Assembly: GCA_037305845.1 (NCBI GenBank)
Contig: CP147778.1
Span: 1,632,001-1,696,000, forward strand
Length of the DNA stretch: 64,000 nucleotides
From: Candidatus Freyarchaeum deiterrae
Lineage (GTDB): Archaea; Asgardarchaeota; Jordiarchaeia; Jordiarchaeales; Jordiarchaeaceae
Direction of reading: 5' to 3'
Under the pieces are notes generated by a model. The model was not told the origin of the DNA, did no database searches, and saw nothing but the letters and a program-made list of their open reading frames with translations. Of this stretch, positions 3,001-16,718 are shown in pieces; the stretch's first letter is position 1, and every line of letters starts with the position of its first letter. A program made the position numbers and the translations under genes.

Positions 3001-4620
3001 GTGCAAGCCAAGGATAGAGTCAAGAAAACATTAAAAATTATTCTCGAGGCAGGTTATCAGGTAACTCCAGACGCGTTGAAAGCCTTTTCACTTTATGAAA
3101 ACCCTGAAGATCTTGCAAAGGAGTTAATTTCGAAAATCGAAGAAGACTCGGAAAACATCATTACTATAGACAACAAATACATTAACGCATTAGAAGAAAA
3201 CCTTGAAACGGATAAGGAAATAGAACCGTCGGACCCCTCGAAGATAAAAAATCAAATCAGTGAGATAGCAAAACCAGAAAAAATAACACCAAAAACCCAA
3301 GAAACCATTAACAAAAATACAGAAACCCAAGAAATCAATACTAACAATCAATCTCTGTTAACTCAAGCAAGCCCAAAGAAATATTTAGCGAAAGATATTG
3401 ACGCAAGATTCGAAGTGATATTTGATCCAACCGGAAGAATGAAGGGTAAAGGCACATTTGAAAATTTCATAAACTATTTCAGAGACAGATACATGAGAAT
3501 TTACAATATCTTCCTTAAAAGGGGGGATATGGAAAATATTTCAAAATTTTCGGAAATTCCACCAGGCAAAGATAAGCAAACCAAAATAATAGGAATAATA
3601 ACCTCAATACAAAAAACGAAGTCTGGCAATATTCTAATGGAATTAGAAGACCTTGAGGGCTCAATCAAAGCAATCATCAATGAGAAGAATAGCGATGTAA
3701 TAAAAAAGGCAGAATATGCAATGTTGGATCAGGTATTATGTTTTGAAGGATATTTATCTAACGATATGTTCATCGTAAATGATTTCTTGTGGCCAGATAT
3801 TCCAATTAAACGAGAAAGGAATAAGTCGGATGAACCAATCTGTGCAGCGTTCATTTCGGATACACACTTTGGTAGTAGGGAATTTCTATCCGACTCATTT
3901 AAACGGTTTACCCAATGGTTAAAAGGACAAGTAGGAGACGAGAGAAGTAGAGAATTGGCAGGGCGTGTAAAATACCTAATAATTGCCGGAGACATAGTGG
4001 ATGGTATAGGTATCTATCCCACGCAGGAAGAAGATCTAGTAGTTACTAATATCCATGAGCAGTACGAGCTAGCAGCAAAATATTTTGAAGAAGTACCAGA
4101 TTATGTAAAAATGATCGCGATACCTGGAGGCCATGATGCAACTAGAATAGCACTCCCTCAACCCGCAATACCTAAGGAATACGCGGAACCCTTATACGAA
4201 ATCGGTGTAGAGATGTTAGGAGACCCCGCCCAGATTTTAACCCACAACGTGGAAACACTAATTTTTCATGGTGAAAGCTTAAACGATGTCACAGCAGCTA
4301 TACCTATAGAACAAACAAAACCACACAAAGCAATGACAGAATTAATAAAAGGAAGACATCTGAATCCAATATACGGAAATACACCAATAGCCCCTGAACC
4401 ACAAGATTGGCTTGTAATAGAAAGAGTTCCAGACATAGTACACTGCGGCCATATACATATCAATGATACAGGAGGATATAGAGGAGTAATCCTATTAAAT
4501 TCTGGAACTTTCCAATCACAAACAGCATATCAAAAATCGATGGGGCTAGAACCAACCCCCGCAAAACCATTAATTCTCGACCTGCAGTCGTATAAAATGA
4601 TTCAATTAGATTTCCTCTAA
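3001..4620 (+). CDS. polB: DNA polymerase D small (proofreading) subunit DP1
   Basis: YFRDRY, OB fold, phosphoesterase motifs SDTHFGS, AGDIVDGIGIYP, FHG, GHIH; next to cdc6. Confidence 0.95.
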   Translation: MQAKDRVKKTLKIILEAGYQVTPDALKAFSLYENPEDLAKELISKIEEDSENIITIDNKYINALEENLETDKEIEPSDPSKIKNQISEIAKPEKITPKTQETINKNTETQEINTNNQSLLTQASPKKYLAKDIDARFEVIFDPTGRMKGKGTFENFINYFRDRYMRIYNIFLKRGDMENISKFSEIPPGKDKQTKIIGIITSIQKTKSGNILMELEDLEGSIKAIINEKNSDVIKKAEYAMLDQVLCFEGYLSNDMFIVNDFLWPDIPIKRERNKSDEPICAAFISDTHFGSREFLSDSFKRFTQWLKGQVGDERSRELAGRVKYLIIAGDIVDGIGIYPTQEEDLVVTNIHEQYELAAKYFEEVPDYVKMIAIPGGHDATRIALPQPAIPKEYAEPLYEIGVEMLGDPAQILTHNVETLIFHGESLNDVTAAIPIEQTKPHKAMTELIKGRHLNPIYGNTPIAPEPQDWLVIERVPDIVHCGHIHINDTGGYRGVILLNSGTFQSQTAYQKSMGLEPTPAKPLILDLQSYKMIQLDFL

Positions 4621-4679
4621 TTATCCAATTATTTTATAAAATATTAAGTTGTAAAAAATTATTTTAACTAAAAAGTCTA

Positions 4680-4711
4680 GATATCAATTTTAGATATCAA
4701 CCACTGATATC
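4680..4711. repeat. GATATC array (3 exact copies, 13-bp period)
   Basis: GATATC at 4680, 4693, 4706 between convergent DP1 and cdc6. Confidence 0.9.
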
Positions 4712-4715
4712 ATCA

Positions 4716-5954
4716 TTAGCCTTGTGGGAGAGGAGGAACGTAATTAACCGTTTTTTTAATGTGATAATCGTTTTCGAGTATCCCTTTTATCTGTTCAGGA
4801 GGCATGTTGATCTTAATTTGTTTAGTCATGCCGTAACGACCCTCACTCTTGAGCTTAGCAATTATTATTCCGAGCATATCTAACTCTGCGATAAGTCCAC
4901 TGACACGCCTTTCTCCCAATATTTCCAGATTAACAATTTTACAAAGATCCGAATATACATCATAAACCAAACCAGTGGTTATTTTTGAGGATTTATTCCT
5001 GTCTAATAAGTAAATACTATAGAGGACAAGCTTAGATTGAATAGGAAGAGTTGAAATCACTTCCGAAACACGATCAGTCTCTAAAATACTTTGAGCCAGC
5101 TTAACACATTCCTGAGTAATTTTAGTCGCTCCCAGTCTTTCACCCTGCTCACCCGCAACACGCAAAAGATCCAAAGCGCGTCTAGCATCACCATGCTCTC
5201 TAGCCGCAAGAGCAGCGCAAAAATTAATCACGCCCGGTTCATCTAACACACCATCAGCGAAACTCATTTTCGCCCTCTCCCTAAGAATATCCTGCAACTC
5301 CAAGGCCCCATAAGGCGGAAAAACCAGCTCCTCTTCGCCCAAACTACTCAAAACCCGGGGATCCAAATTTTCTTTGAACTTTAGATTATTGGTAATGCCA
5401 ATAATACTGACACAAGCCGCCTTCAAAATAGAATGGTTAATCCTTGTTAAGTCATAAAGTACAGAATCTCCATCTTTATCCACTAATTTATCAACTTCAT
5501 CTAAAACAATAATCATAAGTCCCTTTCTAGAGTCCATTGCCGAGATAAAACGGTTGTAAACCTCGTCAGTAGGCAACCCTGTGAAGGGCACCTCAACACC
5601 AAGATTCTCACACAAATGAGCCAAAACACGATAATTAGTGTTAACAGTACTACAGTTCAAGTAAACATAATTGGGCGTTGAAACACCCATCTCTCTACAC
5701 TTTTCAGCCAAGTGTTTTAAAACATATTTAACCACTGCTGTTTTACCGGTTCCAGTTTTTCCATAAAGGAATACGTTAGACGGAGTTCCACTCTTTAGAG
5801 CAGTGGCTAAAATAATTCCCACTCGCCCTATCTCCTTAACACGATGCGGCAAGTTATCTGGAATATAAGTCGGACGAAGGACCTCCCGATCTTTGAATAT
5901 TCCTGGTCCCGAAAGGTATTTTTCGAATATGGAATCAAGGGGCTTCTCGCTCAT
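4716..5954 (-). CDS. cdc6: Orc1/Cdc6 replication initiator (origin-associated)
   Basis: YIPDNLPHR, Walker A GKTGTGKT, Walker B VLDEVD, GDARRALDLLR, C-terminal wHTH. Confidence 0.96.
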   Translation of the reverse strand: MSEKPLDSIFEKYLSGPGIFKDREVLRPTYIPDNLPHRVKEIGRVGIILATALKSGTPSNVFLYGKTGTGKTAVVKYVLKHLAEKCREMGVSTPNYVYLNCSTVNTNYRVLAHLCENLGVEVPFTGLPTDEVYNRFISAMDSRKGLMIIVLDEVDKLVDKDGDSVLYDLTRINHSILKAACVSIIGITNNLKFKENLDPRVLSSLGEEELVFPPYGALELQDILRERAKMSFADGVLDEPGVINFCAALAAREHGDARRALDLLRVAGEQGERLGATKITQECVKLAQSILETDRVSEVISTLPIQSKLVLYSIYLLDRNKSSKITTGLVYDVYSDLCKIVNLEILGERRVSGLIAELDMLGIIIAKLKSEGRYGMTKQIKINMPPEQIKGILENDYHIKKTVNYVPPLPQG

Positions 5955-6213
5955 GCTTCAACCTCTATTATTTGATGTCTACGATTTAAACTTTAATCTT
6001 GGTATTACACCCGTAGGATACTCCAACCTCTATTAGTTGATGGTTTCCTCAAGTAGCTAAGCAGCTGAATAAGAAACCGTTTCAACACCAAGCTCTTGAG
6101 AAAACAGTCCATCCTCCAGGGAGGGAACTAGCAAAAATTGCTTTGGAAATCAAGGTAATAAAGGTTGCGCAGAGGTATAATAATAAATAATTGAATAACA
6201 GACGCGAAATGAT

Positions 6214-6284
6214 GAAATCATTAAAAGATATCAAGCTAGATATCATAAAAAGTAATCCAAAAAAGGATACCAGAACAGGATATC
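6214..6284. repeat. GATATC-like array (6 units, 12-14 bp period)
   Basis: GAAATC 6214, GATATC 6227, GATATC 6239, GTAATC 6252, GATACC 6266, GATATC 6279. Confidence 0.85.
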
Positions 6285-6290
6285 AACAGT

Positions 6291-6782
6291 TCAAGTAAAC
6301 AGATAATCAAGTTGAGAGACGGCCTCAATCCTATCCTTCACTTTTTCTGTTCTAAGACGGTAACGATACTGTTTACGAGTACCAGTTCTCTCAAGCATAG
6401 ATTCCTTACTCTCGTCATAAATTCTAGCAAGGTAAGTAGACATAGTACTCAGAGGAAGACCCTCTTTAAAGAGATTAACATACTGCTCCTGAACATCATT
6501 AGAAGTAAACCACCCATGCTTGAAACACTTCAATAAAACAATCTCCACCTTCTCCTTCAGAGAGAGACTATCCAAATCAGTATAGGTGGCAGACACAGAA
6601 CTATCGCCAGAAGAACTATTACTAGAAACTTCGGACTCAACTTCAAACGAAGAAAATTTTTTTGATAGCGCCTCTACCAATGAGGCTGCTAAATGGGGTG
6701 GTATATCCCCCTCTAGGGTAAGCGTTACTTTGCGATCTGTTTCCGAATCCGAAATCTCAAACTTGTATTTTCTTTTTGGCAA
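6291..6782 (-). CDS. Hypothetical protein with probable C-terminal winged helix, origin-flanking
   Basis: 163-aa ORF, TTG start after GGTGG; WFTSxDVQEQY...LSTMSTYLARI...RQYRY resembles wHTH; Ser-rich linker. Confidence 0.7.
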   Translation of the reverse strand: MPKRKYKFEISDSETDRKVTLTLEGDIPPHLAASLVEALSKKFSSFEVESEVSSNSSSGDSSVSATYTDLDSLSLKEKVEIVLLKCFKHGWFTSNDVQEQYVNLFKEGLPLSTMSTYLARIYDESKESMLERTGTRKQYRYRLRTEKVKDRIEAVSQLDYLFT

Positions 6783-7071
6783 GCAGTTCCACCCGAAATT
6801 GAGGTACGGTAATAATTGTATTCACATGTATATATAGTTTATCTTTTAATAAGAAATTTGTGAACCAACCGATAAAAGAATCATAAAGAAAACAATAAAA
6901 CATAGTATAATATTTTACAAAATAAACACGAAATATTGACCAAAATACAAAAAAGAGGAAAAAATAAACCTTAAACAAAAAATAGAGTGCATTTTCCATA
7001 TTTTTTTATATTCACAGATTCACAAAAACACCATACTTAAAAACAATAAAAAAGAATTTTTATTAACAATC

Positions 7072-7091
7072 TCCACTGGAAACAAAGGGGT
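7072..7091 (+). promoter_or_regulatory. ORB element 1
   Basis: TCCACTGGAAACAAAGGGGT. Confidence 0.88.
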
Positions 7092-7300
7092 AAGTAATAA
7101 AAATGACATTAACACAAAAAGCCGAAATCTTTTCTAAAAATAACCAATTTAAAGCCTTATTTCAACAATCAGATTAACAAATGACGCGTCAACTGTGAAT
7201 GACATTAACACTGGAGATCCCAAGGAAAATTCTACTAATAATCAAAACACCGCCCCAGGAAGGTGAGAAAACAAGTTTCCTGAAGATAATTTCAAGATAT

Positions 7301-7332
7301 GATACCAATTTCAGATATCAATATTTGATATC
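7301..7332. repeat. GATATC-like array (3 units, 13-bp period)
   Basis: GATACC 7301, GATATC 7314, GATATC 7327. Confidence 0.8.
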
Positions 7333-7494
7333 ATGGTTTTTTTAAACAATTAAAAAGCTTGGAACACATGTTCTAACAAAAACATCTGGGGCATATCAAA
7401 TTTTAATATGTCTTATACCTAAAAGAAAAATCAAACTGACTATAAAGAGGGACTTGAAATTAATTACATTTATGTATATGACATTCTACCGGGC

Positions 7495-7746
7495 ATGAAA
7501 AGAGATCCAGTGAGGATGAAGTTTTATAAAGAGTTGTTCGGCTTCAATTATTCTTGGGAAACAAAGAACCAAAGAAAAGTTAAATATCAACCCGGTTTGC
7601 TAGACTATGAGGGATGCGAGACGGCGGGTGACAGCGCAATATTAGTTCCTGAAGAGTATGTAGAAGAGTTCAATTCCTTTTTCAGAAAGTATCGGAATAT
7701 TATCTCATGCCGAGTTTTTATAGTACAAGAGGAAGTAAAACTATAG
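7495..7746 (+). CDS. Small hypothetical protein, possibly Cas2/VapD-like fold; true start may be upstream (non-AUG)
   Basis: Frame open from 7423; YIYVYDIL...RMKFYKELFG...SAILVP; GAGGG at 7447. Confidence 0.55.
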   Translation: MKRDPVRMKFYKELFGFNYSWETKNQRKVKYQPGLLDYEGCETAGDSAILVPEEYVEEFNSFFRKYRNIISCRVFIVQEEVKL

Positions 7747-7814
7747 AAATTAGAACACGTGTTCTAATTAATTAAAATTCGGCCCTCAAAAGGTAAAAAG
7801 TCAATCAAACCCCT

Positions 7815-7836
7815 ACCCCAACATTTCTACTGGAAA
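7815..7836 (-). promoter_or_regulatory. ORB element 2
   Basis: Minus strand TTTCCAGTAGAAATGTTGGGGT. Confidence 0.85.
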
Positions 7837-7991
7837 TACTAACTACCCTTAGCATGGTATTTGTTTGTTAGTTAGTAACTACTCCCCCGTTTAAAATTGT
7901 TTCTTTCTATATTTAAACATACTTATCAAAGTTTTTCGATTAACAACTCAAGATTTATTTCCAATAAAATTTGTAATCAACAGTAAACAGT

Positions 7992-8013
7992 TTTCCAGTA
8001 GAAACCAAGGGGT
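7992..8013 (+). promoter_or_regulatory. ORB element 3
   Basis: TTTCCAGTAGAAACCAAGGGGT, inverted relative to ORB2. Confidence 0.88.
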
Positions 8014-8311
8014 GCGTTTTTAAAACTTTCCAAGTCACCTTCCAGGATTAGAGAACCGAACTAAACTTTTCAAAAAATAGTAAACCCATTGGAATAGCTC
8101 TTAGAGTTAATTTATGGTAACTAAATGAGCAGCATACAAATTAAAGAACTGTGGTCAGTAAAGAATGGTTTCATTTCTTGTATTAGTGAACAATGTGAAT
8201 CTTTCTGAAAAAGAAAGTTACGAGTATCAAAAAAGTAATATCTGGATCCGCGTCGTCATTATTTTTTCGAACGATGTTTAACCGGTAACTAATGCTATAC
8301 CTCATCAGCAC

Positions 8312-8382
8312 GCTATCTATTTTTGATTTCGAGAGTAGACATCATTGTCTGATATCAATTTTTAGCATCATTTTTTGATGTC
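8312..8382. repeat. GATATC-like array (6 units, exact 13-bp period)
   Basis: GCTATC 8312, GATTTC 8325, GACATC 8338, GATATC 8351, AGCATC 8364, GATGTC 8377. Confidence 0.8.
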
Positions 8383-9043
8383 AAGGTATTCTTAGTAGTC
8401 GGATTAGAATTTGTGCTGATAATCAAATCGAGTAGTACAATCTAATTCCTTTGAAATTGGTTGCAAACATGTAGTTCTTGACCGTTCAGGCACTATGAGA
8501 ACCTGAGTTAATTGTCCTGTAATCATAATTCCTGTAATTTAGTTTACTGCAGCTCTCAAAATTATTCTAAATTGTCAAATATTAAAAGTTTAAACCAATG
8601 GAACTAGGTGGATCTGTTTTTATGAATTGGATATATTTGGGGGCTTTTATTATTTCGAGAATATTGAAGATTGTAACTGCTATCCTTTTTACGAAGATCA
8701 AAGCAAGAAAACCTCATCACCTCTCAAAAGGTAGGGAATAAATTTACAGGGTTTAAAATGCAAAAAGGAAAAAAGTATAATGGGACTGGATTACCCTGAA
8801 AGTTGGGAAGATATTAATTTGAGGGTGATATGCCCCGCATTTCTAACTATAATTCAGAAGTGTAGATCCTAACCTTCAATTTTTTGGGGTATTCCAGAAT
8901 AAGCAGACAGCAATATTTGGGGGCATTCCCTCTTTCTATATATTGATTCAAAAACTCGCGTGGGATTGATCCGGAAAAGATAATTTCATTTTCTTACTTT
9001 TATTCGCCCCTATTTAATGTAAATTTGGAAGAGCCGAAATTTT

Positions 9044-9120
9044 GATATCAAAAGATGTAATCCATAAATGATATTTAATGCAGATATCAGATATCTTAAA
9101 TAGATATCAAAAATGATATC
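9044..9120. repeat. GATATC-like array (7 units)
   Basis: GATATC 9044, GTAATC 9057, GATATT 9070, GATATC 9083, 9090, 9103, 9115. Confidence 0.88.
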
Positions 9121-9884
9121 AAGCAGTTAGAGGAATAAGAAATCAGCGGCAGGACCAGGACTTACAAGACGTTGGCCTGCTTTACTTTAATCGAGGTAGA
9201 AAAGCTGAAGAATAAAAACAAAAAGATATCATTGTTATTGCTCTTAATCTGAAAGAATTATCTAGAAAATTTAGAAAAATGTTTACAAAAGTGTATACGG
9301 AGAACCCTCCTCCGTAGGAACCGCGAAAATTTCTTACTATATTAAGGGAGTAATATCTAGATAGTCTATATGGGTTAAAAAACGCATAAAAACCGATATT
9401 TTAACCGAACTCATTGAGATAATAGACAAAAAAGATTTTTAAAAAAGAAAATAATAGAGCTTTTCAACAAAAATAACGAATTTTAATCTTTGAATTTTCG
9501 TAAAATGAATGATATTAAGCGAGGCAATAACCCTTGGTAGTAATTTTTGAAACATAGATTTTGAGAATTAGCCTGGGGCTACTATCAAAATATACCAGCG
9601 CTTGCAAATCTTATCATATCTACGACTGGTTCCTATTTTTTCATTGTTTTTTAAAAAGACCACTGGTAAACCTGTTGCTTGAGTAAAGCTGAAAATTATA
9701 ATTCCAGCAATTGTAACGCTTGGCTTCGGAAATTGCACGCATGGAAAATTCTTTCGGATTAACGGTCAGGGTCTTGATCCCTTTTAGTTTTTAACTTTTT
9801 TATTATTTGAGTTGGTTTTCTACTATTACTGTTCCTCTCGTTTGTAGCTCTTTGATGCATTTTTTTATTACGTCTCGACCCTTT

Positions 9885-9935
9885 GATATCTCTTTCTGAT
9901 ATCTTTTTCTGAAATCAGTATCTGATTTCGATATC
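9885..9935. repeat. GATATC-like array upstream of AAA+ gene
   Basis: GATATC 9885, 9898, GAAATC 9911, GATTTC 9924, GATATC 9930. Confidence 0.85.
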
Positions 9936-10099
9936 TTTATCAATTATGAGTAATAATAAAATATTTGCCAATTGTTATTTATTCCGTAGCCAGTTGGAAA
10001 TCATTTGAGTATATCATTAAATAATGGTTGAAATGTTATCCAAGGGCGTTGTTTCGTCTTTATTGTATGGTTGAAGCATTTAATTTAGAGGTGATACTC

Positions 10100-11161
10100 A
10101 TGGAAGAAAAGTCTGGTGTTGTTGGTAAGCTTTATCCTGGTGTGGCTGAGGCTAGAAATGCTTATTATGAGCGTGTTGGATGGAAGTGGAATCCTTTTGC
10201 TAAGGTTCGCTTGAGCGACCCTGAACTCTTTGTTGCTTCTACCGATGTGATTTTAGAGATTGATGATTATATTAAGGCGAAGGAAAGGCATCTCCTAATT
10301 ACGAGTGAAGAACCTGGTATGGGTAAGACTATGCTTTTGGAGCTGATTTTTAATGATCTTATTCTGTTGTCTAAGCAGGAGAATAAAGAGTATTTGTTTA
10401 ATCCCATAGTGGTGAATCAGAGTAAATTGTTTGTGCGTCAGATGGGAGAGGTGATAGCGAAGAAGTTGGATATAAAATACACGAGTAAAATGAGTTCTGA
10501 GGATATTTACACGTTGATTAAGAAGGATATTATGACGCGTTTTCTTTTGACGAATTGGATGACTCTGATTTTTATTGATGATTTTGGTGATAATGATTCC
10601 GAGGTTTTTATTAAGCTTAAGGAGTTGGGTGATCTAACCCAGAAAGACGCTAATAATTATCTTTTTAACCAAGAATCTGATTTTAAGAAGTATGCTAGTT
10701 CTGCGAATTATCAATTATCTAAGGACAAATTGAATGAGCTGAAAAAAAACGCTTTGGATCCTGAAAGTAGGGATCAAATGATTTGTATGCTGATACTTAC
10801 TGGAACTAAATCTCATGCGTTGGGGCTAAAGACCGGGGTTCCTCATCTTTATGATCGTTGCTGGGAAATTGAACTCGACAGACTGGATAGAAAAAAGGTT
10901 CGGGAGCTTATTGGAAGAAGATTGTATTGGGCAGGTGGAAAACTGGCGAGTTTTAAAGAGGACAACTTTGAAACTTATCCCTTTGATGAGGACGCCATTT
11001 CTGTTTTGACGGAAAAGGCTCACGGCGTAGGGCGGGACCTACGTCTGCTTTGTAATCAGGCAGTGTTTGTTGCAGCTTCAAACTTGAAGGACGGGCGAAG
11101 CGAAAGGATTACCAAAGAGATAATCGAATCTTTGCCACCGGTAGAAAAATTAGTAGATTAA
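10100..11161 (+). CDS. Uncharacterised AAA+ ATPase (ExeA/AAA_22-like)
   Basis: ATG at 10100 after GAGGTGA; YYERVGWKWNPF, Walker A EEPGMGKT, Walker B LIFIDD, HLYDR, GVGRDLRLLC lid. Confidence 0.85.
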   Translation: MEEKSGVVGKLYPGVAEARNAYYERVGWKWNPFAKVRLSDPELFVASTDVILEIDDYIKAKERHLLITSEEPGMGKTMLLELIFNDLILLSKQENKEYLFNPIVVNQSKLFVRQMGEVIAKKLDIKYTSKMSSEDIYTLIKKDIMTRFLLTNWMTLIFIDDFGDNDSEVFIKLKELGDLTQKDANNYLFNQESDFKKYASSANYQLSKDKLNELKKNALDPESRDQMICMLILTGTKSHALGLKTGVPHLYDRCWEIELDRLDRKKVRELIGRRLYWAGGKLASFKEDNFETYPFDEDAISVLTEKAHGVGRDLRLLCNQAVFVAASNLKDGRSERITKEIIESLPPVEKLVD

Positions 11162-11168
11162 CTATAGT

Positions 11169-11280
11169 GATATCTAAAAGAGATATTTAATGAAACAATA
11201 ATGACCGATATCTTAATATTGACATCCTGATAATGATATCTTAATAATGATATCAAAAAATGGTTTCAGGAGTAGATATC
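11169..11280. repeat. GATATC-like array between AAA+ and RHH genes, overlapping RHH start codon
   Basis: GATATC 11169, GATATT 11182, GATATC 11207, GACATC 11221, GATATC 11235, 11249, GGTTTC 11262, GATATC 11275. Confidence 0.88.
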
Positions 11281-11727
11281 TTGCCTAGGCTTACTAAAAT
11301 CGCCGAGAAGGCGCGTGAACAAGAAGCTTTAAAGCAAGCGTCTGAGGATGCTTCTAAATCTCTTAGTACTGAAAACGTTGAAATTGCAAATTTAAAAACT
11401 TCAGATGCCATTGGTCGATTAACTGCGAGCGGTGGATTAGCTGGATTAGAGCACAGCCCCGAAGGCGTTAAGATTGTTGAGAAGATTGTTTATCGTTATG
11501 TAAGAAAGGATCCTGACACTCGGCTCGATACTAATTTTAATGTTAGAATGCCCAGTAACTACTTGGATTTTTTAAAAGGTAGATTTGGAGAAAGAGGCGC
11601 AACTGTTTTTTGTAGGATAGCAATTCTTGAGAAAATGGAGAAGGCTTTTTCAAAACCAGAGCTTGATCCTCTTAAGCTTTTTGAGTTATTGGATGAGCAA
11701 AAACAGAATCTCTCTCGAAAATCGTAA
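11260..11727 (+). CDS. Hypothetical protein with probable C-terminal ribbon-helix-helix DNA-binding domain
   Basis: TNFNVRMPSNYLDFLK...GATVFCRIAILEKME fits RHH strand-helix-helix pattern; extended N-terminus. Confidence 0.65.
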   Translation: MVSGVDILPRLTKIAEKAREQEALKQASEDASKSLSTENVEIANLKTSDAIGRLTASGGLAGLEHSPEGVKIVEKIVYRYVRKDPDTRLDTNFNVRMPSNYLDFLKGRFGERGATVFCRIAILEKMEKAFSKPELDPLKLFELLDEQKQNLSRKS

Positions 11728-11753
11728 ACATTTTTTTATTTTCCCTAATTTTT

Positions 11754-11785
11754 GATATCATTTTTTGGTATCTTTTTGTGCTATC
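11754..11785. repeat. GATATC-like array (3 units, 13-bp period)
   Basis: GATATC 11754, GGTATC 11767, GCTATC 11780. Confidence 0.7.
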
Positions 11786-11962
11786 TTATTTATTTTTGCA
11801 TTTATATAATTTGACAATTTGCTTTTTAGTATATTATATTTGCAGTATACTTTTCTGGAAATAGGAAATGAGAAAGCAATGGACGCTAGTCCTCGCTATA
11901 AAAGATTTGGTAGGTTACGAAAGAGATTGTATTGAAGAAAAAACTGAGGGATGTGATGCGTG

Positions 11963-12511
11963 TTACTCTTTTCGTCCGGTTAGGAAGAAGGGGTTTGCGT
12001 ATTTTTGGATCATGTCTAGTAGGTTTTTTTCTAGTATTTTGAGTGCCGCTTTTTTCTCTTTGGTTTGTTCCTTTTCGTGACTTAGTTCCATCTGCTCCAT
12101 GTAGTTGCTTATAATGTTGGACATGTCGAGATATGGATGTAAGCTTGGGCTATCCAGAATACCGACGTAGCCCAATAGCACGAGAGAGTATATTGCTTCT
12201 ATTAGGTTGGTACAGGCCTGTCCTAGAACTCTTCTAAAGGCGCCACGTGTAACCCCTTTTGTTTTTAATGGTGCGCGAAATTTACGCTTCTGGCTAGGCG
12301 CTCTTAAGAATCCTTTAATTTTATACTTTACAGGTTTGCCGGCGCCTTCATCCAGTAGGAAATTAATCATGAGGGTCTCAAATTGGACTGGCGTAATATT
12401 AGATGAACTGAGTAGTTTACTAACGATAGGATCTGCTAATATATTCTCAACATATTCCCGAACTTTCTCAATATCTCGCTTTTCTGAATCACTGTCATTT
12501 TTAGATAGCAT
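11963..12511 (-). CDS. Hypothetical protein, possible HTH, origin-flanking
   Basis: 182-aa ORF with GGGAG RBS; GVTRGAFRRVLGQA helix motif. Confidence 0.75.
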   Translation of the reverse strand: MLSKNDSDSEKRDIEKVREYVENILADPIVSKLLSSSNITPVQFETLMINFLLDEGAGKPVKYKIKGFLRAPSQKRKFRAPLKTKGVTRGAFRRVLGQACTNLIEAIYSLVLLGYVGILDSPSLHPYLDMSNIISNYMEQMELSHEKEQTKEKKAALKILEKNLLDMIQKYANPFFLTGRKE

Positions 12512-12547
12512 CTTATGCTCCCTTCTTTAAATTTTTATTATAGTAAT

Positions 12548-12579
12548 GATGTCACTAATTGATATCATTTCACGAAATC
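12548..12579. repeat. GATATC-like array (3 units, 13-bp period)
   Basis: GATGTC 12548, GATATC 12561, GAAATC 12574. Confidence 0.7.
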
Positions 12580-12581
12580 TT

Positions 12582-14897
12582 TTAGTTTTGAGCTGCGACT
12601 ATTGCTTGCCCGATGCTAACGCCTGCGTCTCCTGGAGGAGTTTTTTGGTGCTGAATGAATTTTAGGTTATTTTCTTTTACTAGTTTGCTTATTATCTTGT
12701 TTATGGCTTCGTTGTATGCTACACCGCCCGTAAATCCTATAGTTTTTATTCCTGTTTTCTCCGCTGCTATTATTGCCATTTGTGCTAGCCCTTCTGCGAA
12801 TGCTCTTTGGCCTGAAGCTGCTAGGTCTTGGATTTTGTGCTGATTTATTTTTTCTAGAATGTCATTTAATAGTTTTGTAGTGTCGAATATATGCACGCCA
12901 TTTTGTTTGATTATTTCTGGGGTGATTCTTATGGAATCGTTGCCTTTCGCAGCCATTGATTCCAGTCTTATGGATGGTTCTCCTTCGTATGTTTTTTCTA
13001 GACAAATTTTTAGTAGTGCCGAGATTGCGTCTAGAACTCTCCCTGAGCTAGTAGTTGTGATGTAATCTTTTTTTCTTAAAATATTAAGAACTGCTTCCAT
13101 CTCCTGTTTGCCGTATTTAAATCCATCTAGATAGTTCTTAACTAGCATTTCTCTGAGTTCGTCTTCTGGTATTGCATCGCTGAGTATTGCGGTTAACATG
13201 CGTGTGGGGTATTTAGTACTAACATCCCCCCCTGGCATAGGTTGCGATTTTAGGTGTGCTAGTCTTTCTATGGAATTGTATGAGGTAAGCAGAATTTCGC
13301 CACCCCATATTGTTCCATCTAGTCCGTATCCTACTCCGTCGCTGGCTATGCATATTATTGGCTCCTCGATGTTGTTTTCAGCCATTAGTTTTGCTGCGTG
13401 GGCATGATGGTGTTGAACTCTTACCAATTGAATATTGTGAGAATCCGCGAATTCTTCCGCGTATCTTGTGGTGTAAAAATCAGGATGCAAATCACAAGCA
13501 ATCAAGTCGGGTTCTACGAGAGTTAATTTCAACATTTGATTGACTACACTTTTGTGGAATTCTATGGTTTCTAGGTCTCCTGATAAGTTTCCTATATGTT
13601 GGCTTGGAAAGCATCTGTTCCTTTTCATTACAGTTATAGTTGCAGTTAGTTCAGGGCCTACTGCTAAAATGCCTTGTCCTTTATACTCTATGATTGTGTC
13701 TATTGGTTCTGGTACATAACCTCGGGATCTGCGGATAATTTTTGGATTGCCGTCAATTATTCTTATAACGGAGTCGTCACACCTCTGATAGATTTCTCTG
13801 TTATGCAGTAAGAAGAAATCAGCGAGATGCGCTAATTGTGAAATTATCTCATTATTTGACGTCGCCATAGGGTTGTCTGTCAAGTTGCCACTTGTCATCA
13901 CAATAGCTGGATCATTAATTTGTTGAAGAATTAGGTTGTGAAGTCCAGAGTATGGAAGCATTACGCCGACATTGTGAAGCCCGGGGCTTATCTCCTCGGA
14001 TAGGTTGTAGTTTTCAGATTTTTTGAGTAAAACTATTGGGCGTCTAAACGAAGTAATCATATCTTCTTCATATTCATTTACAAAGGCATATTCTCGGACT
14101 TTATCAAGGTTTAGAGACATTATTGCGAAAGGTTTGTATTTTCTCTTTCCTTTTCGTCTGCGTAATTCTAGTATGCATTCGTCGTTGGTTGTTAGGGTAG
14201 CTAGATGGGTGCCACCGATTCCTTTTATCGCTAGAATCCTTCCCTCCTCAATTAAATTTGCAGTTTCTTTTATAGGATTCTCACAATTTACAGTATTACC
14301 GTTTTTGTCATAAAGAGTTAATTTCGGCCCACATATCGGGCAGCAAATACCTTGAGCATGATATCTTCTGTCTAGGGGGTTCTTATATTCCTGATTACAG
14401 TACGTGCATAAAGGGAACTTGCTCATGGTGGTTCTCATTCTATCATATGGTAACTCAATAATTGAAGTGAACCTAGGACCGCAGTCCACGCAACATGTAA
14501 AAGCATAGTTATAATGGCGGTCCGCCGGATTAAGGATGTCATTTAGGCAATTGCCACAGATTGAAATGTCGGGAGGAATATATGAACTTTTTAGAGTGCC
14601 TTCCTTTGAGCTTTTTCTGATATTGAAAGTTTTAAAGCGCCCTTGGTACCGTTTCCAATTTACATCTATTTTTTCATATCTAGCCATGGGCGGTTTTTCT
14701 TTTTCCAAATCTTGAATAAAGTTCTCTATCGCACTTCTCTCCCCTTCAACTACGATGCGAACCCCTGCGTCGCCAAGGTTAAGAACATATCCAGTAAGCC
14801 CCCACTTAACCGCAATTCTATAAACAAAAGGCCTCATCCCAACTCCTTGTACAATACCACTGCAGTTAATTTCACAAGAAGCTTTCAAGAAAATCAA
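12582..14897 (-). CDS. hypF: Carbamoyltransferase HypF ([NiFe]-hydrogenase maturation)
   Basis: GIVQGVGMRPFVY acylphosphatase domain, two CxxC zinc fingers, QHHHAH, DGVGYG, PPGDAGVSIGQ. Confidence 0.96.
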   Translation of the reverse strand: MIFLKASCEINCSGIVQGVGMRPFVYRIAVKWGLTGYVLNLGDAGVRIVVEGERSAIENFIQDLEKEKPPMARYEKIDVNWKRYQGRFKTFNIRKSSKEGTLKSSYIPPDISICGNCLNDILNPADRHYNYAFTCCVDCGPRFTSIIELPYDRMRTTMSKFPLCTYCNQEYKNPLDRRYHAQGICCPICGPKLTLYDKNGNTVNCENPIKETANLIEEGRILAIKGIGGTHLATLTTNDECILELRRRKGKRKYKPFAIMSLNLDKVREYAFVNEYEEDMITSFRRPIVLLKKSENYNLSEEISPGLHNVGVMLPYSGLHNLILQQINDPAIVMTSGNLTDNPMATSNNEIISQLAHLADFFLLHNREIYQRCDDSVIRIIDGNPKIIRRSRGYVPEPIDTIIEYKGQGILAVGPELTATITVMKRNRCFPSQHIGNLSGDLETIEFHKSVVNQMLKLTLVEPDLIACDLHPDFYTTRYAEEFADSHNIQLVRVQHHHAHAAKLMAENNIEEPIICIASDGVGYGLDGTIWGGEILLTSYNSIERLAHLKSQPMPGGDVSTKYPTRMLTAILSDAIPEDELREMLVKNYLDGFKYGKQEMEAVLNILRKKDYITTTSSGRVLDAISALLKICLEKTYEGEPSIRLESMAAKGNDSIRITPEIIKQNGVHIFDTTKLLNDILEKINQHKIQDLAASGQRAFAEGLAQMAIIAAEKTGIKTIGFTGGVAYNEAINKIISKLVKENNLKFIQHQKTPPGDAGVSIGQAIVAAQN

Positions 14898-15160
14898 CCG
14901 TTTAATTTAATTTCAATTTAATCTTAATTTTTATTAATTCTCCAATTTTAGAGCATTACTAGAATTATATAATTTTTCTCGGTTGCTAGACCGCTAAATC
15001 TTTTATTATCTTTTTGAGCTTCCCTTTCTAGAGAATTATAGAGAGGTCTTTATCATGCCTAACGAACGACAAAGGTGAAATTAATATTCTCATGAGTAAT
15101 ATTCTTAAGGGTAATATTCCAAATATGTTTAGAGTTATCTTTTATTAGGGTGGGTTTAAT

Positions 15161-15715
15161 TTGTTTCGACTTCCAACTCCAGAAGATGTTAAAAAACTTA
15201 GGAAAAAGGTGGGTCTAACACAAACTGAATTGGCAGAAAAGGCAAGTGTAAGTCAATCTCTTATAGCTAGAATAGAAAGCGGCTCAGTGGATCCCCGCTT
15301 ATCTACACTACAAAAAATTTTGAATGCCATGCAAATAGCGGATGAGGGATCCTTAACTGCAAAAGACATTATGTTTTCTCCAGTCGTAACAATAGATTCA
15401 GATGCACAGATTCTTGAAGCCACCGAATTAATGAGAAATAAAGACATTTCCCAGCTTCCTGTTGTTAAACAGGGGCGGCCAGTAGGAAGTGTAAATGACC
15501 AGATCATAGTTCAGCATCTGTCCAACGGGCAACAAATTTTCCAGAAGAAGGTAGAGGAAATAATGGAAGAAGCTTTTCCCAGTGTAAGCCCATCAACTAA
15601 GGTAGAAATTATACACCAATTACTCGCAAGAGGCCACCCAGCTGTATTAGTGACAGACAAGGGCGCAATTGTAGGAATTGTTACAAAAATAGATTTAATA
15701 TCAGGCGCAAGATAA
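15161..15715 (+). CDS. XRE-HTH plus CBS-pair transcriptional regulator
   Basis: GLTQTELAEKASVSQSLIARIESG plus two CBS domains. Confidence 0.92.
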   Translation: MFRLPTPEDVKKLRKKVGLTQTELAEKASVSQSLIARIESGSVDPRLSTLQKILNAMQIADEGSLTAKDIMFSPVVTIDSDAQILEATELMRNKDISQLPVVKQGRPVGSVNDQIIVQHLSNGQQIFQKKVEEIMEEAFPSVSPSTKVEIIHQLLARGHPAVLVTDKGAIVGIVTKIDLISGAR

Positions 15716-15847
15716 AACCCAATTCAGATACCAAAATCAAAAATTTATACGATATTTTGTTCCTTAAAAAAAGAAAAAACAACAAATTAATATATGGGTT
15801 AATTCTTAAACCAAGTCTTGAAAAAATTATAAAATCAAAATATTTTT

Positions 15848-16026
15848 GCAGGGTTAGCCAAGATTCCACATAGTTTTGTGTGGAATGGGAACGGTACGGC
15901 GGTAGAAACAGCCTCTATTATGAGATGTTGCAGAAGCTCGAGATCACCTATGGCCAATAAAGTGGGTCAGAACGTGAAACTTACTGGCGGGTTTCCGCCG
16001 CGTGAGTTCAAATCTCACACCCTGCG
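15848..16026 (+). tRNA. tRNA-Ser(CGA) with three introns (15/16, ~30/31, 37/38)
   Basis: Acceptor GCAGGGT/ACCCTGC+G73, long variable arm GGCGG-GTTT-CCGCC, T arm GTGAG-TTCAAAT-CTCAC; introns 15863-15891, 15906-15935, 15943-15978; loop CT CGA GA. Confidence 0.85.
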
Positions 16027-16088
16027 CTTACAAACAATATCAAATATGGGTAGGTATTCTTTTTGGAGACTATTTTACTTCGGTGTTT

Positions 16089-16120
16089 GTAATCTTTTTT
16101 CGATATCAAAAAAAGATATC
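16089..16120. repeat. GATATC-like array (3 units, 13-bp period)
   Basis: GTAATC 16089, GATATC 16102, 16115. Confidence 0.75.
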
Positions 16121-16220
16121 TGAATGCGGTGTGTTTTCCTCTCATCCTGCGTTTTTGCTTTTCAAAGTAGGCTTGTAATTATTTTTTGGCGCCTTTTAGA
16201 CATTTATTCCCAAAGATATG

Positions 16221-16718
16221 TTACCCCAGTAGGTACCCCAGTTTTTTTACAAGGTCTCTTCTTTCTTGTCTTTGTTTTTCGTTTTCGATGGCGGTCACTT
16301 TTTGGCCGTCGACTGCACCAAGTATTGCTCTACCGAGCGAAGTTTCTGCTAAAATTATCTGAACCGGATTCGCTGATGCTACTGTGATGTTGCAAACTGT
16401 GGCTACGTTTTTTAAGGCTCCTAAAACATGTATTGGGTAAGCGTTCGTCATTAGAATAACGAATGCGTGGGATGCTCCGATTGCTAGTGCGTTTTTCGCT
16501 GCGAGTTTGGCTAATCTATCATCGTTTCCATTGAATCTTACCAATTTTGGGACTGCTTCATTCATCGCGACTCCAAATTTAATACCCGGAGCCGCTGCGA
16601 CAATTTCCCTGAAAAGATAGTCAACAGTATAAATAGAAAAATTAGCCATACCGCAAATAAACTGGTCATCTTTTTCTTTCTCGATATCCAACGTTATTAT
16701 TTTAATATCCTGAGCCAT
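16221..16718 (-). CDS. Adenosine-specific kinase family (DUF355) protein
   Basis: PGIKFGVAMNEA, NAYPIHVL, ASANPVQII, GRAILGAVDG, ERRDLVKKLGY. Confidence 0.85.
   Translation of the reverse strand: MAQDIKIITLDIEKEKDDQFICGMANFSIYTVDYLFREIVAAAPGIKFGVAMNEAVPKLVRFNGNDDRLAKLAAKNALAIGASHAFVILMTNAYPIHVLGALKNVATVCNITVASANPVQIILAETSLGRAILGAVDGQKVTAIENEKQRQERRDLVKKLGYLLG

Follow-up and report, generated by a model that had tools for sequence, protein, structure and literature searches.

This work concerns a 64,000-bp stretch (hereafter the window; positions 1,632,001-1,696,000) of the closed, single-contig genome (3,576,204 bp) of Candidatus Freyarchaeum deiterrae (Freyarchaeota (Jordarchaeia), Asgard archaea), in which two adjacent genes, encoding an ExeA-like AAA+ ATPase and a small, tailed partner protein of likely ribbon-helix-helix (RHH) type, lie beside a predicted replication origin and among phased arrays of the GATATC palindrome. 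As judged from the sequence, the pair together with the arrays probably constitutes a centromere-type chromosome partition system, or an origin-positioning system, with an AAA+ motor that is not of the ParA type. We also lean, if only slightly, toward the view that it represents a further partition class, one that is either ancestral to the Asgard archaea or common among them and in which a motor of the ORC/Cdc6-TnsC-MuB type works with a tailed RHH protein reading a lineage-specific, origin-centred centromere, and which can be exchanged for ParAB in the same slot of the chromosome. The known classes of prokaryotic partition systems are defined by the motor, i.e., ParA, actin or tubulin. The preliminary description of the locus had proposed the three-part logic of such systems with a different motor class; the co-occurrence of pair, arrays and origin in several Asgard classes, a motif that follows the type of partner, and parA-parB genes found in the same slot lend this proposal partial support.

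Both open reading frames (ORFs) of the pair are real, conserved genes. The product of the first one contains a Walker A motif EEPGMGKT (residues 70-77), a Walker B motif IFIDDF (157-162), a sensor II arginine (R312) and a candidate arginine finger (R253), with K76 of Walker A and R312 invariant in the ATPase alignment. According to the same alignment, the Walker B acidic pair is DD in the Freyarchaeum protein, ED in the Thor and Gerd lineages and the canonical DE in Odin; the non-canonical forms hint at a slow or partner-dependent hydrolysis. The AlphaFold2 (AF2) model (predicted local distance difference test score, pLDDT, 89.7) comprises an AAA+ core, additional helices after strand 2 and a lid, with nothing beyond, and a helical insert at approximately residues 181-218 is specific to Jordarchaeia. 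TIGR03015 (ExeA/GspA-like ATPases) is the best or among the top NCBIfam matches, although under its cut-off: all four ATPases tested match it with E-values from 1.6e-3 to 1.3e-22, far under the 324-bit threshold, while 21 of the 28 family members match Pfam AAA_22. Some public records accordingly name the homologues 'ExeA family protein'. Unlike ExeA/GspA, however, the protein has no secretion or exopolysaccharide context and no membrane or peptidoglycan-binding domain, and is coupled to a predicted DNA-binding partner and to arrays. The deviant Walker A (KGGxGK[TS]) was not found in it, and the AAA_31 and CbiA profiles gave no match. The earlier assignment of this protein as an ExeA-like AAA+ ATPase without a ParA-type Walker A is therefore borne out by the EEPGMGKT motif, the AAA+ fold and the sub-threshold TIGR03015 match. 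An actin- or tubulin-fold NTPase (of the ParM or TubZ types) was ruled out by the confident AAA+ model and the fold matches.

In the fold search (VIA) the best matches, sharing 10-19% identity with the ATPase, were Cdc6/ORC1 (Z 17-19.6) and the filaments of TnsC (17.5) and MuB (16.6). An initiator-type AAA+ module is thus present (Z 17.8-19.6, rmsd 2.9-4.2 over about 250 residues), and archaeal Orc1/Cdc6 proteins, which are likewise origin-linked, are the closest solved folds. They differ from the ATPase in that it lacks their C-terminal winged helix (Cdc6_C was found neither by the profile search nor in the AF2 model, and the protein stops after the lid), shares 10-16% identity with them, forms a separate clade, and lies 4 kb from a bona fide cdc6 gene. 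In a quick tree, whose long-branch warnings mean that no donor and no order of events is claimed, this clade grouped with ExeA-like proteins. The same fold matches, with Cdc6 and ORC1 at the top, would suit control of origin firing, in which an array-bound partner would recruit the winged-helix-less Cdc6-like ATPase to block, license or pair (handcuff) the origin, as a split initiator or co-initiator. Arrays flanking cdc6 and lying between the origin recognition box (ORB)-like elements would fit such a role, as would the conservation of the ATPase within Jordarchaeia, which equals that of Cdc6 (61% vs 62%). Nevertheless, we consider it unlikely, since by both sequence and tree the ATPase belongs with ExeA-like proteins, far from Cdc6; the distribution of the arrays, given below, also speaks against it.

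A role in partition is supported by the fact that the fold neighbours of the ATPase include the DNA-coating filaments TnsC and MuB. MuB coats DNA in an ATP-dependent manner and is cleared by site-bound MuA (PMC3894238), which by analogy may be seen as the logic of the ParA ratchet (PMC2950902). The pair shares with MuB-MuA and TnsC-TnsB (PMC3894238) the AAA+ fold neighbourhood (Z 16.6-17.5), an ATPase devoid of a site-specific DNA-binding domain and, as we infer, the clearance from DNA by a site-bound partner. It differs from MuB/TnsC in having no transposase, a small RHH-type partner and a fixed single copy at the origin.

The partner protein consists of a conserved N-terminal peptide (approximately residues 1-15), a linker whose length varies and a C-terminal domain that is highly conserved and shows a strand-helix-helix pattern in the alignment. 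Within the tail R3, L4, I7 and A8 are invariant, followed by a variable, low-confidence linker, and the RHH region (about residues 82-122) is followed by C-terminal helices. Its architecture matches that of ParG, omega and SegB, which again supports a role in partition, and known RHH partition proteins combine cooperative binding to contiguous repeats with ATPase activation via the N-terminal tail (PMC9499535; PMC9178275). The RHH fold of the window protein is likely by sequence: it matched Pfam Arc at an E-value of 0.013, under the cut-off, and its Atlas neighbours include RHH families (centromere-binding ParB_C, MetJ, RHH_1) at 0.85-0.87, under 0.9 and therefore a lead only, while its positional equivalents in Gerdarchaeales pass the RHH_1 cut-off. 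Searches of PDB sequences with the Jordarchaeia partner profiles gave no match, and a mixed partner profile gave weak matches to Mnt and ORF56 only. The AF2 model of the monomer is poor (pLDDT 61.6, predicted template modelling score 0.47), its fold search gave no meaningful match, and it is a weak test, as RHH domains fold as dimers, and the predicted complex of two ATPase copies, ATP/Mg and the first 40 residues of the partner, scoring 0.01, is evidence neither way. Of the extended N-terminus and RHH-like C-terminus previously ascribed to this protein, the former proved conserved and the latter is likely on sub-threshold matches.

The GATATC palindrome is not enriched in the Freyarchaeum genome as a whole (888 observed vs 941 expected), and in the window it was observed 45 times (14.8 expected). 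All five genomic clusters of at least three exact copies are located at window positions 4680-11280, together with 16 of the 22 pairs of sites spaced by 13 bp and all 14 triples (both at 4680-16134), a concentration to which control palindromes showed nothing comparable. The phasing equals 13 bp: near-matches at exactly this distance number 0.75 per exact regional site vs 0.012 elsewhere, and those at 26 bp 0.46 vs about 0.01, with A/T-rich spacers. About ten phased arrays span 11.5 kb (from 4680 to about 16120), interleaved with cdc6 and the ORB-like elements and including the predicted origin. The pair had been described as bracketed by GATATC arrays; those at 9885, 11169-11280 and 11754 do exist, but the arrays are not brackets only, as they extend over 4680-16120 around cdc6 and the ORBs, and the one at 11754 has a single exact copy, its other two copies each carrying one mismatch. 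The array between the genes (11169-11280), a joint top-scoring segment of the whole genome, does not cover the second start codon, as had been stated; instead, its last site abuts the TTG.

All arrays of this genome are intergenic, and several of them are upstream of cdc6 and the ATPase, partner and orf182 genes, as would be expected of operators. The pair could accordingly be a transcriptional or cell-cycle regulator resembling aCcr1/CdrS, with the ATPase as a modulator; RHH partition proteins also repress promoters (PMC9499535), and the motif of the Thor lineage is similar to the aCcr1 box AGTATTA (PMC9976892). We find this distinctly improbable, because arrays are also located between converging gene ends (4680, 11754) and, in relatives, deep within unrelated coding sequences under synonymous constraint, and because the phased sites are confined to one region of 12-40 kb, whereas the aCcr1 motif is found upstream of approximately 240 genes (PMC9976892). 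Moreover, aCcr1/CdrS, which share with the pair the RHH type and the resemblance of their box to the Thor/Gerd motif, are stand-alone regulators of about 60 aa with a dispersed regulon and without tail, ATPase or phased arrays, and the window motif is different.

A profile search of 301 Asgard genomes, divided into families labelled f1, f2, etc. (Odin is f3, Thor f7, and f27 Gerdarchaeales/Heimdallarchaeia by record names), revealed one strong ATPase copy in 4/5 genomes of f1, 5/5 of f2, 4/4 of Odin, 69/76 of Thor, 3/3 of f20, 1/1 of f26 and 8/11 of f27, and none in, e.g., f9 (0/68), f5 and f21. The pair is thus nearly always single-copy in about seven families, and a divergent 435-aa ATPase homologue with a C-terminal extension of about 100 aa and the same kind of partner is present in f12 (hhalign 97.7%). 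Every examined ATPase of this type has a tailed partner of 90-160 aa encoded directly downstream. The pair lies 1-5 kb from cdc6 or ORBs in Jordarchaeia, Odin, f20 and f12 and about 9 kb in f26; in three Thor loci it is about 9-10 kb from ORB-like sites, and in Gerd about 10 kb from a cdc6 paralogue.

The phased motif varies by lineage: GATATC with a 13-bp period in Jordarchaeia, GTAWTAC/9 bp in Thor and Gerd, and TCAWTGA/9 bp in f12, the last one found de novo after the prediction that f12 should own an array. The Thor and Gerd partners are homologous (hhalign 97.6%) and their motif is identical; by profile comparison, no link emerged between the partner types of Jordarchaeia, Thor/Gerd and Odin. 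In Odin and f20 a weaker version of the Thor/Gerd motif with a 10-bp period was obtained in a search that is there partly circular and noisy. A cross-table of motif against partner type gave a clean diagonal, with zero matches in 159 kb of pair-negative winged-helix (wH)/cdc6 loci, although genomes within a family are not independent and the real sample amounts to about four to five lineages. When palindromes and periods were scanned blindly, -log10 p did not exceed 4.3 at pair-negative and parAB loci and ranged from 6 to 30 at those of Frey, Thor, Gerd and f12 and at three of the four f2 loci. Arrays were not found in f26, f6 and Bathyarchaeia loci or around other ExeA-like genes.

In whole-genome searches, 12/12, 24/24 and 8/9 sites of three Thor genomes fell within 12-40 kb of the pair, and 11/12 and 15/17 sites of two Gerd genomes within 3.5 kb of it, with one chance site in 24 genomes outside the pair-positive groups. 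In f12, sites with one mismatch were seen outside the locus as well, and the exact ones among the matches listed are all at the locus; exact GTAWTAC pairs with free spacing are not diagnostic. The clustering at the pair, together with a motif that tracks the partner type, supports a centromere-like function, and, as in ParA-type systems, the cis-acting repeat cluster does not extend beyond the locus or the origin region. The clustering holds even where the cdc6 orthologue is far off. Arrays centred on the pair in Thor, with that orthologue 75-1000 kb away, and arrays within 3.5 kb of the pair in Gerdarchaeales, where 20-kb loci gave no ORB match, are difficult to reconcile with the control of origin firing. 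Intragenic sites exceeded those in synonymous-codon shuffles (52 vs 5.2 in Thor; 8 vs 0.5 in f2), which supports partition, as sites of SegB are also mostly intragenic and clustered at segAB (10.1101/2025.02.07.637068). In Jordarchaeales (L035:9637-9670; equivalents in L036, L037 and L039) a GATATC array was seen within the ATPase coding sequence, retained via synonymous codons.

A contextual argument comes from Atabeyarchaeia, where the gene order in all three genomes (one lineage) is cdc6-[wH]-ORBs-parA-parB-orf182. In Jordarchaeia it is cdc6-wH-ORBs-AAA-RHH-orf182, so that slot and orientation of the pair match those of parA-parB. The Atabeyarchaeia proteins match AAA_31 (ParA, E 5e-55) and ParB_N (ParB, E 1e-18); neither the ATPase nor arrays were found in these genomes, and a quick scan of the parA-parB loci indicated no obvious common parS palindrome. 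This replacement in situ supports the partition function of the pair, and the occupation of the slot by parAB rather than by a second initiator again disfavours origin-firing control. In the closed Freyarchaeum genome neither ParB nor a strong ParA was found, its weak ParA matches being read as CooC-, Mrp-, ArsA- and RadB-like, and a strong ParA was present in 0/17 genomes of f1/f2/f3/f20, 0/19 of f12 and 1/26 of Thor. This near absence from pair-positive families points in the same direction.

The third gene of the block, orf182, goes with the pair in all of the pair-positive families that were examined. Besides the pair, its companions include parAB and, in f6, an orphan RHH gene, and most other families lack it; this suggests a shared accessory rather than a reader of the arrays; it is a probable third or accessory component. 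Its match in three Odin genomes contains one internal TAG at a similar place. The f6 (Asgardarchaeia) orphan (L102:6995-7318) encodes an f12-type RHH protein near the origin, with no adjacent ATPase and no strong arrays, and is possibly a decayed module. Given its helix-turn-helix-like (HTH-like) segment and its constant company, orf182, or else the wH protein, might read the arrays, leaving the ATPase-RHH pair as a bystander in a conserved gene block. The probability of this is very low in our view, because Atabeyarchaeia and f6 have orf182 but no arrays, many origins that lack arrays have the wH gene nonetheless, and Thor and Gerd, which have homologous partners and the same motif, differ in the orf182 helix.

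Further support for partition comes from Bathyarchaeia, where the gene downstream of a Thor-type ATPase homologue is KaiC-like and its product begins with three copies of the N-terminal motif of the Thor partner; a tail-less small RHH gene is located upstream of the ATPase. This threefold recurrence on a different protein suggests, on the basis of one cluster, that the N-terminal peptide is an ATPase-docking element travelling with the ATPase. The proximity of this cluster to a D5 primase-helicase gene and a tRNA-like sequence, together with the TnsC/MuB fold of the window ATPase, would also agree with a domesticated or residual mobile-element ATPase (TnsC/MuB/IstB-like) with an autoregulatory RHH protein. 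We regard this as extremely unlikely, since the pair is single-copy at a fixed locus in 69/76 Thor and nearly all Jordarchaeia, Odin and f20 genomes, is strongly conserved, and has no transposase adjoining it in the window. A present-day mobile element is largely refuted, and a mobile-element origin may explain the ancestry of the ATPase but not its current role.

Several observations weigh against partition or narrow its scope. The replacement argument stands on one lineage, and the position of the arrays between the ORBs is equally compatible with origin control. ATP turnover is uncertain because the Walker B motif lacks the usual catalytic glutamate (DD; ED in Thor/Gerd). All RHH profile matches of the window partner are under cut-off, and its homology to the Thor/Gerd type was not detected by profile comparison. 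Homologous pairs without arrays or away from origins, which in the preliminary description counted against the proposal, were partly encountered in the co-occurrence check: f26 has the pair, yet no arrays were detected, the arrays of Odin and f20 are short and degenerate, with Odin (1/4 loci at 5.6), f20 and f26 at or near background in the blind scan, and the Bathyarchaeia contig has neither arrays nor origin genes, so that the ATPase family is usable in other ways. Many Asgard families (e.g., f9, f14) have neither the pair nor parAB, therefore the pair is not universally needed, and the origin gene block also holds unrelated genes (e.g., hypF), which makes linkage alone a weak argument.

If the partition function is correct, partner dimers, one per palindrome and packed cooperatively along the 13-bp arrays, would mark the origin region as a centromere, and the partner would probably repress its own operon. 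The ATPase, as its modelled fold suggests, may be MuB/TnsC-like and form an ATP-dependent oligomer or filament on non-specific DNA, while the N-terminal peptide of the partner would dock on it and trigger hydrolysis and release. A gradient of the ATPase over the nucleoid could then serve to separate newly replicated origins (diffusion ratchet) or, alternatively, the origin domain could be compacted and tethered. The protein encoded by orf182 would be a likely accessory subunit.

Among known systems, SegAB/segS of Sulfolobales (PMC12139799; 10.1101/2025.02.07.637068) is similar in being a chromosomal two-gene operon with the ATPase first, a small partner (RHH in SegB, probably so here) with an N-terminal ATPase-binding region (predicted here), sites clustered around the operon and often intragenic (here in relatives), and a further conserved gene in the vicinity (SegC in Sulfolobales, orf182 in the window). 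It differs in the motor (SegA is a ParA-type Walker ATPase, here AAA+), in the motif and in the location of the present locus right beside the ORBs; sequence similarity of the partner to SegB was not found. The type Ib systems ParF-ParG/parH (TP228) and delta-omega/parS (pSM19035; PMC9499535) likewise have an RHH protein (probable here) with a flexible N-terminal tail and multiple arrays in which short repeats follow one another directly, some of these arrays overlapping the operon promoter, whereas the present module has a non-ParA motor, is chromosomal and stable within classes, and uses spaced palindromes with a 9-13 bp period. The layout thus resembles type Ib and SegAB, and the module is set apart from known types by a motor that is not ParA, actin or tubulin, has no Cdc6 winged helix and has no transposon context. 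A description of such an ATPase-RHH-array module was not found in the searchable literature (most subscription papers being outside its scope), and the paper reporting a complete Freyarchaeia genome gave no match for 'Cdc6' or 'segregation'.

The order of genes in the window is DP1, cdc6, the wH-like gene, three ORB-like elements around an 83-aa ORF, 2 kb without long ORFs, the ATPase-partner pair, orf182 and hypF. The turning points of the cumulative GC- and AT-skew are within about 40 kb of the predicted oriC; the cumulative G-C skew shows there a peak and not a minimum, opposite to the usual bacterial sign. Outside the window, a further element that is ORB-like and has a G-string (genome position 287,377) may mark a second origin. 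The wH gene, which adjoins cdc6 in the window, was found in 76/101 Asgard genomes and is a candidate origin-associated factor. The 83-aa ORF is kept at the origins of Jordarchaeia, Odin, Thor, f20 and f26; the Pfam search gave no match for it, and its pattern is ferredoxin/Cas2-like by eye. Over about 1.8 kb (8100-9880) neither a conserved ORF nor an Rfam match was found, and an Rfam search of 4500-16500 gave no match either. At the place of this 1.8-kb stretch, f2 and f20 genomes have a gene of 115-120 aa, located between the 83-aa ORF and neighbouring genes, for which the Freyarchaeum genome has no counterpart.

Table 1. Features of the origin region of the window and of related loci (L numbers denote loci of other genomes).
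Feature	Position	Strand	Remarks
Perfect triple GATATC array	4680-4711		between DP1 and cdc6, converging gene ends
orc1/cdc6 initiator gene	4716-5954	-	Pfam Cdc6_C and Cdc6_lid
GATATC array	6214-6284		between cdc6 and wH gene
Origin-linked wH-like gene	6291-6782	-	context; present too in lineages without the pair
Predicted oriC	7071-8013		ORB-like elements at 7071 (+), 7815 (-) and 7993 (+); encloses 83-aa ORF (7495-7746)
Triple array	7301-7332		between ORB1 and ORB2, within predicted origin
Degenerate 13-bp array	8312-8382		just past ORB3
Dense array	9044-9120		two interleaved 13-bp registers, 5 exact copies
13-bp-phased array	9885-9935		upstream of ATPase gene; weak additional pair 9997/10010; kept in four congeners
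ExeA-like AAA+ ATPase gene, 353 aa	10100-11161	+	ATG start after GAGGTGA ribosome-binding site
Intergenic array	11169-11280		13-14 bp period, 5 exact and at least 2 near-exact copies; ends at partner start codon
Partner protein gene, 148 aa	11281-11727	+	TTG start after GGAG (11269-11272); homologues begin at same residue
Downstream triple array	11754-11785		1 exact and 2 one-mismatch copies; between converging gene ends
orf182	11963-12511	-	conserved helical protein with HTH-like segment
Triple array	12548-12579		upstream of orf182
Outermost array	16089-16120		about 4.4 kb past the pair
Atabeyarchaeia bacterial-type parA-parB operon	L095:9652-11251; L096:8885-10478; L097:8834-10424		adjoins ORBs and cdc6
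Bathyarchaeia module (small RHH, ExeA-like ATPase, KaiC-like ATPase)	L093:3196-5021; L094:9290-11312; L085		near tRNA-like sequence and D5 primase-helicase gene

For several Asgard classes, a candidate motor, adaptor and centromere sequence can now be named, and short oligonucleotides and two or three small purified proteins would suffice to test each of them, also by swapping specificities between lineages. If the proposed function is true, the partition systems would gain a class with an AAA+ motor of the initiator/transposition type, which would tie the clearance mechanism of MuB/TnsC to chromosome segregation. If the pair serves origin control instead, it would add to the regulation of archaeal replication a new level that is based on a Cdc6-like fold.

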